58,905 nt of DNA from a virus (lineage: Duplodnaviria > Heunggongvirae > Uroviricota > Caudoviricetes), in the IMG/VR virus record IMGVR_UViG_3300001528_000136, positions 1 to 58,905 of that record, one strand, 5' to 3'. Shown here piece after piece: positions 2,778 through 31,920 of this stretch (position 1 is the first letter of the stretch; every line of letters starts with the position of its first letter). The notes under the pieces were generated by a model. It made no database searches. It saw nothing but the letters and a program-made list of their open reading frames with translations, and had not been told where the DNA came from. The translations under genes were made by a program, and so were the position numbers.

Positions 2778-3266
2778 TTAATAGCCTAACTCTAGATAAT
2801 TAGATATAAGTCTCTCGGCTTCTCTAACCTGCCATTTTATAGCATTAGTCAGACAAGCTCTGTACTGACCTAAAATAAGGTCATAGCATAGAACTTCATT
2901 TGAGATACCAAAACCATTACCAGCCATAGTCTCATCTCTATGCTTTTCCCAGAATGGAATGTTATCAGTATTCAAACCCCAGATGTCACCAAGATATACT
3001 TCATCTGGACGCATCGTGATTATGTCCTTAGTACGGAAAAATCCATACTTATCTGGTCTAGTATTCTGATTCTTGAAACCATCATTCCACATCTTCTTAT
3101 GAATGGTCATCAAATCTTCTAGAGTATGACAATCATTGATAGCATGAAGATACTGGTCTTTCATACCACGAATACGCTTCTGGTCTTGCATATCAAAGAA
3201 ATTAGCATTAATCTCTTTAGTTTTGAACAATCTGTTAATCCATGAGTTCTTAATAATCTTTTTCAT
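2778..3266 (-). CDS. hypothetical protein (about 162 aa)
   Basis: ORF track 2778..3299; ATG at 3266 (MKKIIKNSW) preferred over the upstream TTG. Confidence 0.8.
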   Translation of the reverse strand: MKKIIKNSWINRLFKTKEINANFFDMQDQKRIRGMKDQYLHAINDCHTLEDLMTIHKKMWNDGFKNQNTRPDKYGFFRTKDIITMRPDEVYLGDIWGLNTDNIPFWEKHRDETMAGNGFGISNEVLCYDLILGQYRACLTNAIKWQVREAERLISNYLELGY

Positions 3267-3563
3267 ACTTTGTAAAGTTTTAATTGTTGTAATTAACAAC
3301 GTTAGTTAATAATGTGAATTGTACTAAATAGGACATTAGTAAATAACTGTAATTAGCTATTTAATCTCACTCACCACGTAAAGGTTTCCTATCCTAACTA
3401 ATTACGTAGTAGTAACTAATTAGTTATTAGAGTGAGATTTTACCGTCATTTGGATTGGAGAACGACGGAAGGAATTTCAACCTTTGGATGCCTACTATTA
3501 TTCAGCATATTAAATGGAATTAAAGAGTAATTAAATAACAGAATATGTTCTGCTATTGTGGAA

Positions 3564-3740
3564 TTAATATTTTATCTTATAATCTTTCCATAATAAAACA
3601 GCATGTGTAATAGCTGCTATTAAGATAAAGAACAAGATAATGAATGCTCTACTGTTACATACTATCATCATGTAGGTCAACATACCCAGTAAGATGAGTT
3701 CTATTATTAAACTAATCCAGAAGAATACACGAGTTACCAT
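3564..3740 (-). CDS. small two-TM membrane protein (58 aa)
   Basis: Manual translation MVTRVFFWISLIIELILLGMLTYMMIVCNSRAFIILFFILIAAITHAVLLWKDYKIKY*; preceded by the pseudoknot motif. Confidence 0.65.
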   Translation of the reverse strand: MVTRVFFWISLIIELILLGMLTYMMIVCNSRAFIILFFILIAAITHAVLLWKDYKIKY

Positions 3741-3776
3741 AATGTAAAGTTAATGTTACAATGATTTAACTAAAAG

Positions 3777-3804
3777 TAAGCAGTTTATACACTTGCTTAG
3801 GTGT
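3777..3804 (-). promoter_or_regulatory. H-type pseudoknot leader motif
   Basis: Reverse complement ACAC-C-TAAGCA-A-GTGT-ATAAAC-TGCTTA; stem 1 covaries (ACAC/GTGT versus AGAC/GTCT). Confidence 0.65.
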
Positions 3805-3855
3805 CCCTAAAAGAGCATATCTTGATGTGGAAGCTTTTAAGTAAATAGTTATTAA

Positions 3856-4155
3856 TTAAATAATAGCATAATTAGATAGTTTAAATAATGCTATATCTAG
3901 TTTAACTATTGACATCTTTCTTACTGTGAATTTGCCATTGATTATAAGTGACATCAACTTGAATGTGTTTGGAGTATAATCTAATCCACATTCTCTAATT
4001 AATTGATTCACTGCATAATTATGTGACTTACGATTAGCAATTGACATATTATGATATTTATATATATTATATTGCCAATTCTTATGTTCTTTCTCTCTAA
4101 TTTTATTATCGTAGAGAGTGTAAACTTGTAATAATGTACTATTTCCTGTTATCAT
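3856..4155 (-). CDS. hypothetical protein (99 aa)
   Basis: ORF track; ATG to TAA. Confidence 0.7.
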   Translation of the reverse strand: MITGNSTLLQVYTLYDNKIREKEHKNWQYNIYKYHNMSIANRKSHNYAVNQLIRECGLDYTPNTFKLMSLIINGKFTVRKMSIVKLDIALFKLSNYAII

Positions 4156-4501
4156 ATCTTGTAATTTAGAGTTATTATACTATTGTGATTTATTGTAAAT
4201 AATTAGAGTAATTTAAAATAAATTATAATTGTTCTCACTCTGAGTTCTAACCTCAGTACAATAGTTTTATTTAAGTGAGAATTTTTGTTTTATAATATAT
4301 TATTAGTTGACCTATACACTAAAAGGTTTTTAATCCTTAATTAATTATGATACTAAATTATAATATATAAAGTGATAAAAGTTGGGACTAGTACATAGCC
4401 AAACTGGTCAAAAACGAATGATATTGGGTAAGTAGCAAAAAGCAGTCACTTACTCCATTGCCATTTTCAGCTCGCTAGAATGTAGTATTATGTCCATTAA
4501 C

Positions 4502-9027: not shown

Positions 9028-9099
9028 TCTCTTCTGGTGTAATGGCTAGCACAGGTGGCTCTAACCCACTTAGTCAGGGTTCGAATCCTTGGGGGAGGA
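9028..9099 (+). tRNA. amber suppressor tRNA (anticodon CTA), probably Gln-charged
   Basis: TCTCTTC-TG-GTGTAATGGCTAGCAC-A-GGTGG-CTCTAAC-CCACT-TAGT-CAGGG-TTCGAAT-CCTTG-GGGGAGG-A. Anticodon CTA at 9061-9063. The TGGTGTAATGG D-arm and weak 1:72 pair are tRNA-Gln-like. Confidence 0.93.
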
Positions 9100-9120
9100 C
9101 TAAATAATAAATAAAATAAT

Positions 9121-24929: not shown

Positions 24930-25293
24930 CAAGACATCTTACAAACTAGCTATAATCGCATTAAAATATGTTCCATTTATTACTGCTAGTATAATGTATA
25001 TTCATGTTATTTTAGTGCTCTTTGCTAAACCTTTATTTATAGCTGAAATGTTTGCAGGATGTTCTATATTACCTGCTGTAATAATGTATTTAATAGCACA
25101 TGTATTAAGGTTTTGCTGGATACATAAAAGCTTAATAGTTTATACAGCATTAATAGATGGATGTATTACTTATAATAGATATTTTGAATTTAATAGTATG
25201 GAAATACATGCATGGGGAGCTTTTGTAGTTGGAACCTTTCTAGTATTCTATACCATAATATTTAAATTTTTATGGAAGAAATTGCTTGGGTAA
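24907..25293 (+). CDS. membrane protein (128 aa with TAG=Gln)
   Basis: Track ORF 24994..25293 extends to ATG 24907 through one TAG; several TM helices. Confidence 0.65.
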
Positions 25294-26618
25294 GTGGAAG
25301 ATATAGACCCCTAGTTAAGGGAGCTTTTCTAAATACCCTACGAGAATTAAAAACATTAATAAAGGAAATATCAAGAATTAATGTCTATGTATCTGAAGAT
25401 ACTATCAGAGTTATTGATAGATATGGTAAGGAGTCAATAATAGACATAGCTATGTAGTCAGAAGTAGTTAATTTAACTGTTACCTCTGATGAACCATCAG
25501 TTAAAGTCTCTGGGCTTAAATTAAGTGTCTATATTAATGGCGGAAAAACTCCTATATATTATACGACTGATAGTGATGGTAAAGTAATATTTTTAGTACC
25601 TAGAGGTAGTTATTATTAGATAGAATTTCCAGAATATGCTAAAGCTTAGCCTATAACTCCAATTGGTTATACTGCAATATTAAGTAGCAGAGATATAGAT
25701 GTTAAATATTTACCTTATGATGAAGCTACTAGTGAAAAGGTAATAGTTAAGGTTAATAAGGTAAAAGATGGCACTAAAACAGCATGGGAAGATAAAGAAG
25801 TAAAGGTAACTGTTGATAAAAAGACCACTTCTTATAAAACAAACGAATCTGGAGAATATATAATTTGGATTCCTCTGGGGAAAGAATATACTATATAGGT
25901 AGATAATTCAGATGGATACTATGTAGATTTTAGTAGAAATAAGAGAACATTTACTGCAAAAGTTGTATAGAGACAGGTGGTATATAATGCAGGAATTTAT
26001 CTTACAGGAATATTTCTTTTAAATAATTAGGGAGAACAATACAATATAGAGGATTGGAAGAAATTAGGATATACTGGTGATGATGTAATAGGTATTAGAA
26101 TAAGTACAAACATATTAATGGCTAATAATTCAACTTATGTAATACCTATGAAAGTATTATTGGAACATAAGTCAGTAAATTATCAATGGTGTAATTAGAA
26201 TGTATTATTTGAATCTATATCTAGTAATGGTAATAATACTTCTGACCCTTATTATTATAATGGAGAAGGTGCTAATGAATTAATAAGAGACGAAGCACAA
26301 TAGAGAGCTTTACTAGTACCTGCATTCACTTATGCTTATAGTTAGATATTTGAAATTAATGGGGAGTAGTATCATGGTTATATTGGTTCTATAGCTCAAT
26401 GGTCGGCTTGTATAAATAATATGGTTTATATAAGAGATAATATTATAACTGAACTATGGGATGCTAATACTGCTTCTACTATCTATAATTGGATTTGTAA
26501 TAGTTGGAAGTGGACTAGTTGCTAGAATAATACCGCCTACGCTTGGGGCTACGGCACTGGCACGGGCAACTACGGCAAGGGCTACGGCTACCTAGTAGTT
26601 CCGTTTTGCGCTTCTTAA
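25272..26618 (+). CDS. DGR target protein 1: putative receptor-binding protein with beta-sandwich domains and a C-terminal CLec-like domain (448 aa, TAG=Gln)
   Basis: The C-terminus WKWTSC(Q)NNTAYAWGYGTGTGNYGKGYGYLVVPFCAS* is encoded by VR1; paralog of 29740..31236. Confidence 0.88.
26532..26612 (+). repeat. DGR variable repeat VR1
   Basis: 81-nt ungapped match to the TR with 20 mismatches, all at TR adenines (15 G, 3 T, 2 C). Confidence 0.95.
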
Positions 26619-26624
26619 TCTCAT

Positions 26625-26672
26625 TCAGCCCTTTCCCTCTTTCCAAGTCCGCAAGACTGTGGAAAGGGCTGA
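26625..26672 (+). other. hairpin/cruciform downstream of VR1 (putative homing recognition element)
   Basis: TCAGCCCTTTCC...GGAAAGGGCTGA with an inner AGTC-CGCAA-GACT hairpin. Confidence 0.65.
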
Positions 26673-26763: not shown

Positions 26764-27162
26764 ATGGCACTAACTAAAGACCTCTAGATTTATAAAGATA
26801 ATTATGATTTATGTAAATTATTTTTATAGTATAATAAGTAGGTAAGTAAACTTCTCAGATATGGTCAATATCAAATTATGATTGATAAATCATTTAACTG
26901 TTTAGATTTATTAAGAAGAATAAATAGTGATTTTAAAACTAGAGAGTATTACTTAGAGTAGTATTTGTTGTTACTAGACGATATTTATAATCGTGTTAGT
27001 TTGTTCGTGGAGACTGGTTATATAGAGGTAAAGAAAGGTACTAATATGATTCATTTAGTATCTGGATTATAGAAGTAGGCTACGGGTTGGAAAAGTTTTT
27101 CACGCAAACGCCAGAATTGTAGAGGCAACGCCAATACAAGTGAGCAGTCATTATCTAAATGA
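26764..27162 (+). CDS. avd: DGR accessory variability determinant (Avd-like four-helix bundle, 132 aa, TAG=Gln)
   Basis: L(Q)IYKDNYDL...RYG...K(Q)ATGW pattern; directly upstream of the TR and RT; six in-frame TAG. Confidence 0.8.
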
Positions 27163-27236: not shown

Positions 27237-27317
27237 ACCGCCAACGCTTGGAACTACAACACTAACACGAACAACAACAACAAGAACAACAACTAACTAG
27301 TAGTTCCGTTTTACGAT
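27237..27317 (+). repeat. DGR template repeat (TR)
   Basis: ACC GCC AAC GCT TGG AAC TAC AAC ACT AAC ACG (AAC)4 AAG (AAC)3 TAA CTA GTA GTT CCG TTT TAC GAT: 11 AAC codons and 34 adenines, between avd and RT. Confidence 0.95.
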
Positions 27318-27326
27318 TGTCAATTA

Positions 27327-28454
27327 ATGACTTTAAAAATGCGTGAATGGATAATGATAGAATAGGTTTATCAAGCTTATGATGATTGTTGCAAACGTAA
27401 GAAATCTACTTACGGATATGTAAAATATCATTAGAACTATATAATGAATAATTTATAGTTATACAAAGATTTAAATAGTATGTAGTATAAAATAGGTATG
27501 AATAGAACATTCTGTGTTACTAGACCTAAATTAAGAGAAGTATTTTGTGCTACTTTCAGAGACCGTATAGTACATCATTTATTAGCCAATAAATTTATTG
27601 ACATAATAGAGTCCGAACTTACTGATTCAGCTTTTGCTTGTCGTAAGGGTAAAGGAACACATTATGGTATTAAATATATAGAAACTGCTATTAAAAGAGT
27701 AAGTGATAATTATACTAAAGAAGCTTGGATATTAAAATGTGATTTATAGGGATTCTTTATGAGTATAGACAGAAACTTATTATTTAATATTATAAATGAT
27801 GTAATTAGAAAGAAATATCATGGTGGAGATATTGAAAACTGGTTATGGCTCTGGAAAACTATAATTATGAATGCTCCTGAAAAAAATTGTAAAAGGGTAG
27901 GTAATTTAGACTTATGGAAAAATTTACCAGCAAATAAATCTCTATTTACCAGTAATGGCAAAGGATTACCTATAGGCAATTTGTCTAGTTAGATATTAGC
28001 TAATTTACTATTATCTAGATTAGATAATTTTATATTAAGTAAAATAGGTAATGGAGGTTATGGTAGATATGTAGATGACTTTATTCTAATACATAATAAT
28101 AAAGAATATCTTAAATAGTTAATTCCTTAGATTAAATCTTTCTTAAAAGATAAACTAGGACTTACTTTACATCCTAAAAAGATATATTTATAGAATGTAT
28201 AGAAAGGAGTATCATTTATAGGAGCTTATATTAAGCCTAATAGAATATATGTGAATCACAGAATTATAAATAATTGTAAAGAAACATTTAAAGAATATGA
28301 GAATGCTGACCATTTTGTTTAGTAGATAAATAGTTATTTTGGTATGTTAAAACACTATAATACTAAAAAGATGCGATGGGAACTCTGGAAAGAAATGCCT
28401 AAGAAAGGTATATACTGTGTTAATCTAAATAAAATAAAGAAATTAAATGATTAA
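27327..28454 (+). CDS. DGR reverse transcriptase (375 aa, TAG=Gln)
   Basis: Motifs PKLREVF..FRDRIVHH, FACRKGKG, LKCDL(Q)GFF, GLPIGNLSS(Q), RYVDDF and LHPKK; about 12 in-frame TAG. Confidence 0.95.
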
Positions 28455-29022
28455 TTTTTGTTATACAAATATTCCTATAAATTTATATAAAGAGAAAGTA
28501 GATATGGGATTTACTTCTGTATTACACTTCGACCCTATTAAATAGGAAGGTGATACCTATTTATGTGTTGAGTGTACCATACCTAATGATCTTTTAGATT
28601 AGGCAGAGACTCTTTATAATGAATGGAAAACTAAATAGGAATAGTTAAAACTTAACTATGTTAAGAATGAAAAAATAAAAGAGATTGAAGAATATGATAC
28701 TAGCACTAAGGTTAATGGTTTTTAGTTAAATGGAGTTACTGTATGGCTAGATAAAGCCACTAGAGTAGGTCTTATGAATAGTACTACCATAGCTAAAAAT
28801 ATGGGTAATGAGAATACAACTCTTTGGTTAGGTGATATTAGAATAGAAGTTAATTGTGATAAAGCTATTCAACTTCTATCAGCCCTAGAAATGTATGCTC
28901 TTCAATGTTTTAATGTGACAGCTGCACATAAAAAGACCATAAGCGAATTAACTAATATCAAAGAAGTAGAAGATTTTGATATAACAGTAGATTATCCAGA
29001 TTAGTTAGTAATGTCAATCTAA
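28447..29022 (+). CDS. DUF4376-like putative fibre-associated protein, paralog 1 (191 aa, TAG=Gln)
   Basis: YDTS..VNGF...WLDKATRVGLMNS...LEMYALQCFNVTAAHK...YP. Confidence 0.75.
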
Positions 29023-29534: not shown

Positions 29535-29755
29535 TTAAAATAAATAAGAGAGATATTTATGGGCTAATAGGCTGGTTTATAGTTAGTACAGTTATCAGCA
29601 TATTAGCTTTACCTGTTATGATAGGCAGAGAAATTTATTAGTGGAAACATTATAATTTATCTGCTTTAGAATGGGAAGATATAATTAGATATTCAATAGT
29701 AATCTTATTAGGTTCTATAATTAATTACTAGTTAATACAATGGCTGATACAATAA
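29522..29755 (+). CDS. small membrane protein (77 aa, TAG=Gln)
   Basis: MLHLIKINKRDIYGLIGWFIVSTVISILALPVMIGREIY(Q)W... Confidence 0.6.
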
Positions 29756-31236
29756 ATGACAATATAATTAATAAAGCTAAGATAAAAGATATAGATTATG
29801 AAATAGGGGCTAAATATGATTCTTCTGGTAATGAAATAGAAACTACTTATCTAAAAAAAGAAACAGTAGATAATACTGTAACTGCTTGTGAAACTTCCAC
29901 TTAGGCAGCTACTGAAGCTACTGCAAAAGCTATTACTGCTACTAATGATGCTATAACTGCTACTGGAAATGCTGAAAACGTAAATGCAGTTTTAGAAGGT
30001 AATGTACTTACAATTACAAACCGTTATGGGGTAAGAGAATCTATTAATCTTACGGATTCTGATGAACATATTACCATAAATCTCACAACTACTGTAGAAG
30101 ATGCTAGTATGAAGGGATTAATTATTAATGTATTTATTAATAATGGTACTGATGTTTTATAGTATATATCAGATGATAATGGACAAGTAGAATTTACTGT
30201 TCCTAAAGGAGCTACTTATAAAGTAGTATTTCCCTATGTAAAAAATTGTAATATACCTAATCCTGTATAGCATATAGCTAGTGTTGGTAATAGAATTATT
30301 GATATTTCTTATGATCTTTCAGTATATAAGTATGAATAGGTTATTGTTAATACTAAATAGGAAAATGAAGATGGTAGTGTTATAGCTATTATTAATAAAG
30401 AAATTACAGTAACTATTAATAAAGAAGATACTATATATAATACTGATGAAGAAGGTAATGTTACTTTCAATGTACCTATTGGAACTACTTATAAAGTAAG
30501 TACAGAAACAGCTGAGGGAACTTTTGAAGCACATGGTCGTGATACATTTACTAGAGTTGCTTCTGCAACATCTTTTCATATATCTTTTTATTTTCAATAT
30601 TATCAAAGTGGTATATGGTTAGTAGATAATCAAAATAAAATATATACATTTGACGAGTGGGAAGAAAGTGGTAATGATTCTTCAACTTTAGCATTTATTA
30701 AATTAACTTCTAAAGAAACACAATAGTATCAAGGTGATATATATATTTCATTTGAAACTATATATAATTGGGGACAATATGGTTCTATGCAATGGTGTAA
30801 TCAAAATGTATAGTTTAATAATATGCCTTTAAATGGTATGGATAAAAATAATAGTTTATGGGGAACATTTGCTTATAATGGATTATTAGCTACCTAGACA
30901 ATTATAGCAGAAGCCACAGAACGCAGTTTATCTGTACCAGCAGCTACTAAATGTTACAGTTATACAGTAGAAAATGGCAATAAAACATATTAGGGGTATT
31001 TACCTACAGTATATCAATGGATATTATTTATTAATAATGTAGATAGTATAATAATGGCAGCTTAGTATAAATATCCAGAAATAGTATCTACTGTAAACAC
31101 TTTTAAAGGAAATAAATGGAGTTCTACACAGCAAAGTACCGCCAGCGCTTGTTACTACAACACTGGCACGAGCTACTTCAGCAAGAGCTACGGCTACCTA
31201 GTAGTTCCGTTTTACGCTCCCCTCTTACCCTCTTGA
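29740..31236 (+). CDS. DGR target protein 2: putative receptor-binding protein (498 aa, TAG=Gln)
   Basis: Paralog of target 1 (QWCNQNV, EA..R.L.VPA); the C-terminus WSSTQQSTASACYYNTGTSYFSKSYGYLVVPFYAPLLPS* is encoded by VR2. Confidence 0.88.
31138..31218 (+). repeat. DGR variable repeat VR2
   Basis: 81-nt ungapped match to the TR: 15 mismatches at TR adenines and 1 at a G (TGG to TGT). Confidence 0.93.
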
Positions 31237-31307
31237 CCCATTCATCTCTTTGCTTTCGAGCAAGGATGTTGCAAGGAGCGGAGCGAACGTAGCATTGAAT
31301 GGGTCAA
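31233..31307 (+). other. hairpin/cruciform downstream of VR2
   Basis: TTGACCCATTCA...TGAATGGGTCAA with an inner TTGCT-TTCG-AGCAA hairpin. Confidence 0.65.
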
Positions 31308-31338: not shown

Positions 31339-31920
31339 ATGAAAATAAATTTTATAAAAACATTTATATCTAATGACGATTTTTCTGAAAAAGAAATATT
31401 AGGTAATAAAGTTATAATGAGATTTGATGCAGTTAAAGAAGAAGATGGTTATTATTGTGTAGAATGTTCTATTAATAAAGAAGATTTTAATGAAACTTTA
31501 ATAACTAAATCTTATAATGAGTGGAAGAGTAAACTTGCTTCACATTAGCTATTTCAAGCTAAAAATGCTAAAATAGCTGAAATTGATTTCTATGACCAAT
31601 CTTCAGCAGTGAATGGATTTAAACTTAATAATTCTTAGGTGTGGCTTGATAAGGCTACTCGTGTAGGCTTGATGAACTCTACTAAAATAGAAAAAGATTT
31701 AGGAAATGAAACAACAGATTTATGGTTAGGTGAATTACATCTTACTTTAAATTGTGATTTGGTAATTAATATATTAAGACAATTAGAATCTTATGCTTTA
31801 AAATGTTTTAATATAACTGCTCAACATAAGAAAGAAGTAAATGCTTTAACTACTATAGAAGAAGTAACTACTTACAATATAACTAAAGATTATCCTGAAC
31901 AATTAACTATAAATATCTAA
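31339..31920 (+). CDS. DUF4376-like protein, paralog 2 (193 aa, TAG=Gln)
   Basis: Track fragments 31339 and 31639 are in frame; WLDKATRVGLMNST is shared with 28447..29022. Confidence 0.8.

Follow-up and report, generated by a model that had tools for sequence, protein, structure and literature searches.

The template repeat (TR) of the phage DGR described here carries a stop codon, TAA, at positions 27294-27296 in the reading frame of its two target genes, both of which have TAC at the corresponding place in their VRs. In related phages this stop is kept in the template, transferred to the VRs and mutated there, mostly to codons for aromatic residues. The reading that we favour, with a probability of roughly 0.6, is that the TAA is a genuine codon, both inherited and hypermutated, in which the mutable AAC motif sits out of frame and so gives the target an aromatic-biased T-N-N codon, the stops that come with it being a tolerated cost and not the purpose. 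The TAA had been pointed out in a sequence-only reading of the DNA, and its position in frame and opposite TAC in both VRs was confirmed from the sequence itself; the TAA recurs in ten other assemblies.

A complete DGR in an amber-recoded phage

The window, that is, the whole stretch of 58,905 nucleotides that was analysed, covers the first 58.9 kb of a virus record that is 186.9 kb long and has direct terminal repeats. It belongs to a gut-type phage in which TAG is read as glutamine: the window is poorly readable under the standard code, translation with table 15 yields long continuous ORFs, and an amber suppressor tRNA is encoded upstream of the DGR. The DGR itself is complete (Table 1). The TR is intergenic, lying inside no ORF called under table 15, and the VR codons that face the TAA are in frame with their own genes under that table.

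Table 1 Features of the DGR and its surroundings, in window coordinates
Feature	Position	Strand	Remarks
tRNA, anticodon CTA (amber suppressor)	9028..9100	+	basis for TAG as sense codon
Target gene 1, 448 aa, 11 in-frame TAG (Gln)	25272..26618	+	C-terminal C-type-lectin-like domain, residues ~245-448
VR1, 3' end of target 1	26532..26612	+	codon 440 (26589-26591) is TAC
Hairpin-forming inverted repeat just downstream of VR1	26625..26672	+	z -4.2
132-codon ORF in the usual place of avd (accessory variability determinant)	26764..27162	+	avd identity by position and size only
TR, 34 adenines, mostly in in-frame AAC codons	27237..27317	+	between avd-like ORF and RT gene
16-nt block identical in TR, VR1 and VR2	27297..27312	+	co-varies between TR and VR in relatives (CTA/CTT, GTA/GTG, CCG/CCA)
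DGR RT, 375 aa, 12 in-frame TAG	27327..28454	+	Pfam RVT_1, E 2e-19
Target gene 2, 498 aa, 10 in-frame TAG	29740..31236	+	paralogous C-terminal domain
VR2, 3' end of target 2	31138..31218	+	codon 486 (31195-31197) is TAC
Hairpin counterpart after VR2	~31215-31285		z -2.7

The differences between template and VRs are those of adenine mutagenesis. All 20 mismatches between TR and VR1 fall at TR adenines, as do 15 of the 16 between TR and VR2, the exception being a G-to-T change at 27251, and the same pattern recurs in ten VRs of relatives, where adenine sites show all four bases. The exceptional change (27251 in the TR, 31152 in VR2) converts a family-conserved Trp to Cys in target 2; two members of the target clusters (P0131 and P0135) have Gln at this Trp position, presumably through a change of TGG to TAG. 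In the RT, G217, N218, L219, S221 and Q222 are invariant among 27 homologs and the GxxxSQ motif is present. The Gln of the SQ motif (Q222, 27990-27992) is itself encoded by TAG, so that the DGR cannot work without amber suppression. For the avd-like ORF no Pfam match was obtained at E 0.01, and relatives have an ORF of 122-134 aa in the same position; Pfam likewise did not detect the lectin-like domain in the targets. Paralogous proteins of about 190 aa with a weak match to DUF4376 (E 4e-6 and 9e-4) are encoded after both target regions, at 28447-29022 and 31339-31920, the one that belongs to target 1 coming after the DGR cassette.

Directly after the stop comes the 16-nt block, of which the window has exactly three copies and the entire 186.9-kb genome no more (0.07 expected by chance). 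Within it, the synonymous third-position adenines at 27299 (CTA) and 27302 (GTA), which correspond to 26594 and 26597 in VR1 and to 31200 and 31203 in VR2, were unchanged in 17 of 17 VR observations. Mutation occurs on both sides of the block, at 27296 and at 27313, an adenine that is altered in 7 of 10 VRs. The two unchanged adenines could reflect either a context effect, as both stand before G, or a need for homology when the cDNA integrates. A fixed mismatch follows at 27316, 20 nt past the TAA codon, with A in all TRs and C in 10 of 10 VRs, and the succession of a variable 27313 and a fixed 27316 resembles an IMH/IMH* boundary. The hairpins are found downstream of the VRs and are absent from the TR flank (z +0.3), and the locus thus appears, as far as the sequence goes, to have the directional 3' boundary and target-side hairpin of a DGR.

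The template stop is conserved among relatives

As relatives we used RT homologs in public assemblies, whose DNA was compared with the window. The TAA is kept in ten other assemblies from different samples (L022, L023, L027, L029-L033, L037 and L038) with RTs that are 82-89% identical, and it persisted through changes at nearby positions of the TR (AAC to AAT or AGC, CTA to CTT, GTA to GTG and CCG to CCA). Its presence in ten independent assemblies excludes an assembly error or a fresh lesion of the TR, both of which the sequence-only reading had allowed for, and the TRs of these close relatives carry the stop itself, not the TAC of the VRs. Sister lineages have other codons at the homologous position: AAA in L028, AAC followed by TTG in L034 (RT 75% identical) and in L024-L026, and TAC in L035/L036. 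A standard-code relative with an RT identity of 58% has TAC. Since L028 changed the TAA to AAA, the codon is not indispensable. In the RT tree, members with TAA appear in more than one part of the ingroup, and the tree leaves a single origin of the TAA undecided.

Some relatives differ in their cassettes. In L024-L026, with an RT 87% identical, the TR (~5896-5968 in L024) has a different 3' third (AAG ACT AAT AGT AAC TTG ACG ATA CCG), the target has 471 aa and the second target downstream is absent, which suggests module exchange. L031 has a second target-like gene (2852-4282) that ends in a VR-like sequence with no blastn match to the TR; perhaps this VR has decayed, or a different template serves it.

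Searches of other collections yielded little. Exact-pattern scans of IMG/VR with the 16-nt block and its CTT variant returned single chance matches or nothing, which means that no close relatives are present there apart from the window's own record; a search for related loci with the RT of the window alone returned two loci, only 26% identical. A metagenome scan was run with a highly degenerate pattern, and among the matches listed no locus resembled the TR. GenBank phages gave no DNA match and a best RT identity of 39%.

The stop is transferred to the VRs and mutated there

Across the window and its relatives, the VR codons at the site are TAC (twice), TTA, TGG (four times), TTC, TTT (twice), TCT and TAG. 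Position 27295 is altered in 8 of 10 VRs and 27296 in 9 of 10, and at each of the two adenines every one of the four bases is found among the VRs of relatives. Two assemblies, L022 and L023, are identical in RT protein, TR and VR1 and nevertheless differ at many adenine sites of VR2, including the codon opposite the TAA (TGG versus TTC), which shows that the element was recently active. This contrast and the variability of the codon across VRs place it inside the mutagenised and transferred tract. It had also been considered that the codon might lie in an invariant IMH/IMH* segment that is never passed on to the VRs, a possibility that the variation at this site removes. Judged from sequence, ongoing diversification of the DGR is further indicated by a single 90% target cluster in which 642 members have differing VRs.

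Departures from simple substitution were seen in individual relatives. The VR of L038 (79-164 versus 764-846) is one codon longer than its TR, beside a run of AAC; 3-nt indels of this kind were reported by Wu et al. (PMC5758913). In L159 and L160 (3848-4228 in both) and in L241 (3848-4099), a deletion has removed the avd-like ORF, the TR and the greater part of the RT gene, so that only the 3' end of the RT gene remains before the DUF4376-like gene and the VRs are frozen. L241 also has a premature TGA (3774-3776) in place of a conserved Trp codon of the VR. A shortened cluster member, P0142, was considered as a protein ending at the TAA site and was rejected: a TGA replaces the conserved Trp codon earlier in its VR.

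One cluster member, P0134, has Gln at the site, and the corresponding DNA (3818-3820 in L159 and L160) is TAG within an otherwise open gene of 448 codons. This allele can be read only because the phage decodes TAG as Gln. The sequence-only reading had argued that table 15 changes the repertoire accessible from the template, and here a natural TAG allele is indeed found at exactly the TAA-derived codon.

Aromatic residues dominate at the TAA-derived codon

To the DNA-level VRs we added protein variants from the 90%-identity target clusters, restricted to lineages of the TAA type, which gave 22 distinct VRs. The TAA-derived codon encodes Trp in 7 of these, Tyr in 6, Phe in 6 and Leu, Ser and Gln in 1 each, and it is a stop in none. 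Aromatic residues are thus found in 19 of 22, compared with about 33% of sense outcomes expected from how often each base occurs at the AAY adenines of these VRs, a rough spectrum that is itself post-selection (P about 4e-7). Applied to a TAA template, the same spectrum predicts 16% TAA stops, 12% TGA stops, 21% TAG, 17% Trp, 18% Leu, 5% Tyr and 2.5% Phe. The nonsense fraction, which with so rough a post-selection spectrum can only be approximate, would accordingly be about 28% when TAG is read as Gln and about 49% under the standard code. Gln itself was found in 1 of 22 where about 30% was predicted (P 0.005), which suggests that the rescue of TAG by recoding may yield mostly unfit proteins.

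The preference for aromatic residues extends beyond the TAA lineages. At the homologous residue, 60 family members have Tyr in 25 cases, Phe in 10 and Ser in 7, and the homologous TR codon in 28 related TRs is AAC (13), TAC (9), TAT (5) or AGC (1); in the family as a whole the site is thus variable, with aromatic residues preferred. If an aromatic residue were all that was needed, TAC, as in the relatives, would give more viable products than TAA. Trp, the commonest outcome, is beyond the reach of AAC and TAC alike, and it is plausible that access to Trp and a wider choice are the advantage of TAA, although the frequent TGG could also be a simple effect of a strong A-to-G bias.

The codon precedes the last strand of a lectin-like domain

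Residues 235-448 of target 1 were modelled with AF2 from a 60-sequence alignment (mean pLDDT 94). No match at E below 0.001 was found with Foldseek against the PDB, and the fold was recognised by a wider structural search. The best match was the Bacteroides fimbrial protein 4eps (VIA Z 13.0 over 194 residues), followed by the C-terminal domain of Legionella Lcl (8q4e; VIA Z 9.0 over 122 residues); Mtd (1yu0) and TvpA (2y3c) gave VIA Z 5.4 and many C-type lectin domains 5-6. The structural alignments all extend to model residues 212-214, and the variable domain of the target is confidently modelled as a C-type-lectin-like fold.

In this model Tyr440 is residue 206. A stop at this codon removes the sequence LVVPFCAS, including the strand formed by residues 210-212, so that a TAA or TGA copy loses the last 8 residues of target 1 or the last 12 of target 2. 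The claim that an unmutated copy would end the protein ahead of the terminal LVVPF strand of the domain is therefore supported, the TAA being in frame and the strand lying downstream of it. In the 60-sequence alignment, a Pro (P210) and an Ala (A213) of this tail are near-invariant, and truncation at codon 440 is likely to abolish function.

No stop opposite a sense codon in 47 related templates

How unusual the TAA is was assessed from 80 IMG/VR loci with related RTs, which gave 61 TR/VR pairs with 47 distinct TRs. A stop opposite a sense codon of the VR was found in none of these 47 TRs of related phage DGRs; where they contain in-frame stops, the VR has the stop as well and the gene has already ended. 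The 674 codons of 28 motif-aligned TRs included no TAA, TAG or TGA and none of the four third-position-adenine codons checked (CAA, GAA, TCA and TTA); AAA occurred once. The absence of these codons suggests strong selection on the choice of TR codons. In published work, AAY codons are described as unable ever to give a stop (10.1101/2024.11.15.621889), and stop-prone codons are reported to be strongly depleted in natural TRs (10.1101/2025.03.24.644984). The TR of the window departs from the stop-free AAY rule at two codons, the TAA and an AAG at 27282-27284; related phage TRs have one AAG each. The open-access literature, including the two large DGR surveys (PMC5758913, PMC8144416), yielded no account of a TR with an in-frame stop.

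An out-of-frame AAC motif as the probable explanation

The TAA and the base that follows it, C at 27297, form an AAC trinucleotide (27295-27297) that is one base out of frame. With the motif placed as T|AA|C, the RT would randomise the second and third positions of the codon, not the first and second, and would thereby deliver to the target a T-N-N codon specifying Phe, Leu, Ser, Tyr, Cys, Trp, Gln (via TAG) or a stop (TAA, TGA). At this site, immediately ahead of the final strand of the lectin-like binding domain, selection would then keep mainly the aromatic residues. TAA and TGA copies are presumably non-functional and purged, in which case every productive homing event must mutate the codon, and nonsense would be a tolerated cost that amber recoding roughly halves. 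For the Bordetella RT, mutagenesis is reported to be higher at adenines that come after a C, with the two adenines of AAC mutating jointly, and lower, with a bias to G, at AG (10.1101/2025.03.24.644984). The pattern here matches these context rules, which derive from the Bordetella enzyme and may differ for the RT of the window: 27295 and 27296, before C, are nearly always changed, and 27299 and 27302, before G, and the adenines of AAG almost never. As to how the motif came to be displaced, the TR of L030 can be obtained from that of L034 by adding one T and removing one G (two indels, compared with four substitutions), which suggests that a compensated slip moved the AAC motif relative to the frame.

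That same relation also fits a relic that is neutral or mildly deleterious: a compensated +1/-1 slip would have created the TAA in the template and been copied into the VRs, and the stop would persist without benefit because selection on phage progeny removes truncated variants at little cost. We regard this as possible but rather unlikely. In its favour, L028 replaced the TAA by AAA, TAC would serve an aromatic requirement better, and the RT tree leaves a single TAA origin undecided. A relic would not, however, readily be retained across an RT divergence of up to 18% while its neighbours in the TR changed, in a family whose templates otherwise avoid stops and thereby point to strong selection on codon choice, nor would it explain why Trp, which neither AAC nor TAC can give, is the commonest residue at the site. 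The possibility that the TAA is an artefact or a lesion of recent date, or else a fixed mismatch of the IMH/IMH* type that does not reach the VRs, can be set aside almost completely: in the window alone, the TR adenine faces C in both VRs and the invariant 16-nt block lies next to the site, but recurrence of the TAA in different samples, all four bases at both adenines in the VRs of relatives and the location of the truly fixed mismatch at 27316 speak against it.

The sequence-only reading had suggested that the stop could have a purpose, either as a filter for mutated cDNA or as a way to turn off one of two receptor proteins. That the stop is selected for as such a checkpoint, or as a switch acting stochastically, did not hold up well; we consider it improbable. 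By the logic of the code, an unmutated or TGA copy does end the protein before its last strand, and the codon is among the 3'-most variable positions; if information transfer begins at the 3' end as it does in Bordetella (PMC3240598), nearly all homing events would include the codon. Yet neither TAA nor TGA occurs at the codon in the 22 distinct VRs, and the aromatic residues in 19 of them point to an effect on the repertoire. An off allele of a virion protein would moreover be a dead end in a phage genome, with no reversible phase, a poorly mutated and Asn-rich VR would probably be non-functional even without a stop, and no regulatory context was found. It is also doubtful that stop and genetic code are functionally coupled, in the sense that recoding permitted fixation of the stop and that the stop serves as an obligate-mutation checkpoint at the 3'-most variable codon. 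If such a coupling were true, reading TAG as Gln would make the likeliest single mutant of TAA a sense codon and lower the share of homing events lost to nonsense from about half to about a quarter, and a complete receptor-binding protein would arise only from cDNA mutagenised at that codon.

The out-of-frame motif, as the reading that we prefer, has consequences beyond this phage. DGR templates have been described as avoiding nonsense, and here a phage lineage keeps a stop at a hypermutated position through substantial divergence, which implies that the system can survive even when a measurable portion of homing events goes to waste; the natural variants are numerous enough to show how selection treats the codon. 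Placed out of frame, the mutable AAC motif gives access to a different set of amino acids that includes Trp, and the natural TAG allele shows that an alternative genetic code alters the repertoire reachable by a DGR. For those who engineer DGR-based mutagenesis, the codon is a natural example of a T-N-N design; for the phage, it marks a residue at the receptor-binding tip that varies and yet is held to aromatic side chains. In the open-access literature covered, there is no description of an amber-recoded phage DGR in which a stop conserved in the template serves as a hypermutable codon with an aromatic bias.

Comparison with known systems

The DGR of Bordetella phage BPP-1 (mtd-avd-TR-brt), the prototype, shares with that of the window the order of target with VR, small accessory ORF, TR and RT, differences between TR and VR at adenines only (here bar one position of VR2), and a VR at the C-terminus of a receptor-binding protein with a C-type-lectin fold. 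In both, a hairpin follows the VR and none follows the TR, and the 3' end consists of an identical block and then a fixed mismatch (PMC3240598). Unlike BPP-1, the DGR described here has two targets, all of its components need amber read-through, its 3' block is not GC-only, and its template has an in-frame stop at a variable site. At the level of the fold, the target resembles BACOVA_04982, a Bacteroides fimbrial (type V pilus) tip protein (4eps), and Lcl (8q4e), with alignments that reach the C-terminal end of the model, whereas sequence identity is only 11-13%, and the shared fold implies no function.

Similar features are found in the DGRs of crAss-like (Zeta) phages with recoded TAG or TGA (PMC12386605), which likewise belong to large gut phages with a suppressor tRNA(CTA), have amber codons in the DGR RT together with the GxxxSQ motif, and act on tail-fibre targets ending in a C-type lectin-like domain. 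They differ from the DGR of the window in that the paper describing them makes no mention of a stop in the TR and reports avd in two genomes only. The behaviour of individual codons finds a parallel in the DGRec study of the Bordetella RT (10.1101/2025.03.24.644984), where AAC is the most mutable motif and AG shows a lower rate with an A-to-G bias; a difference is that the TR codon here is itself a conserved stop.
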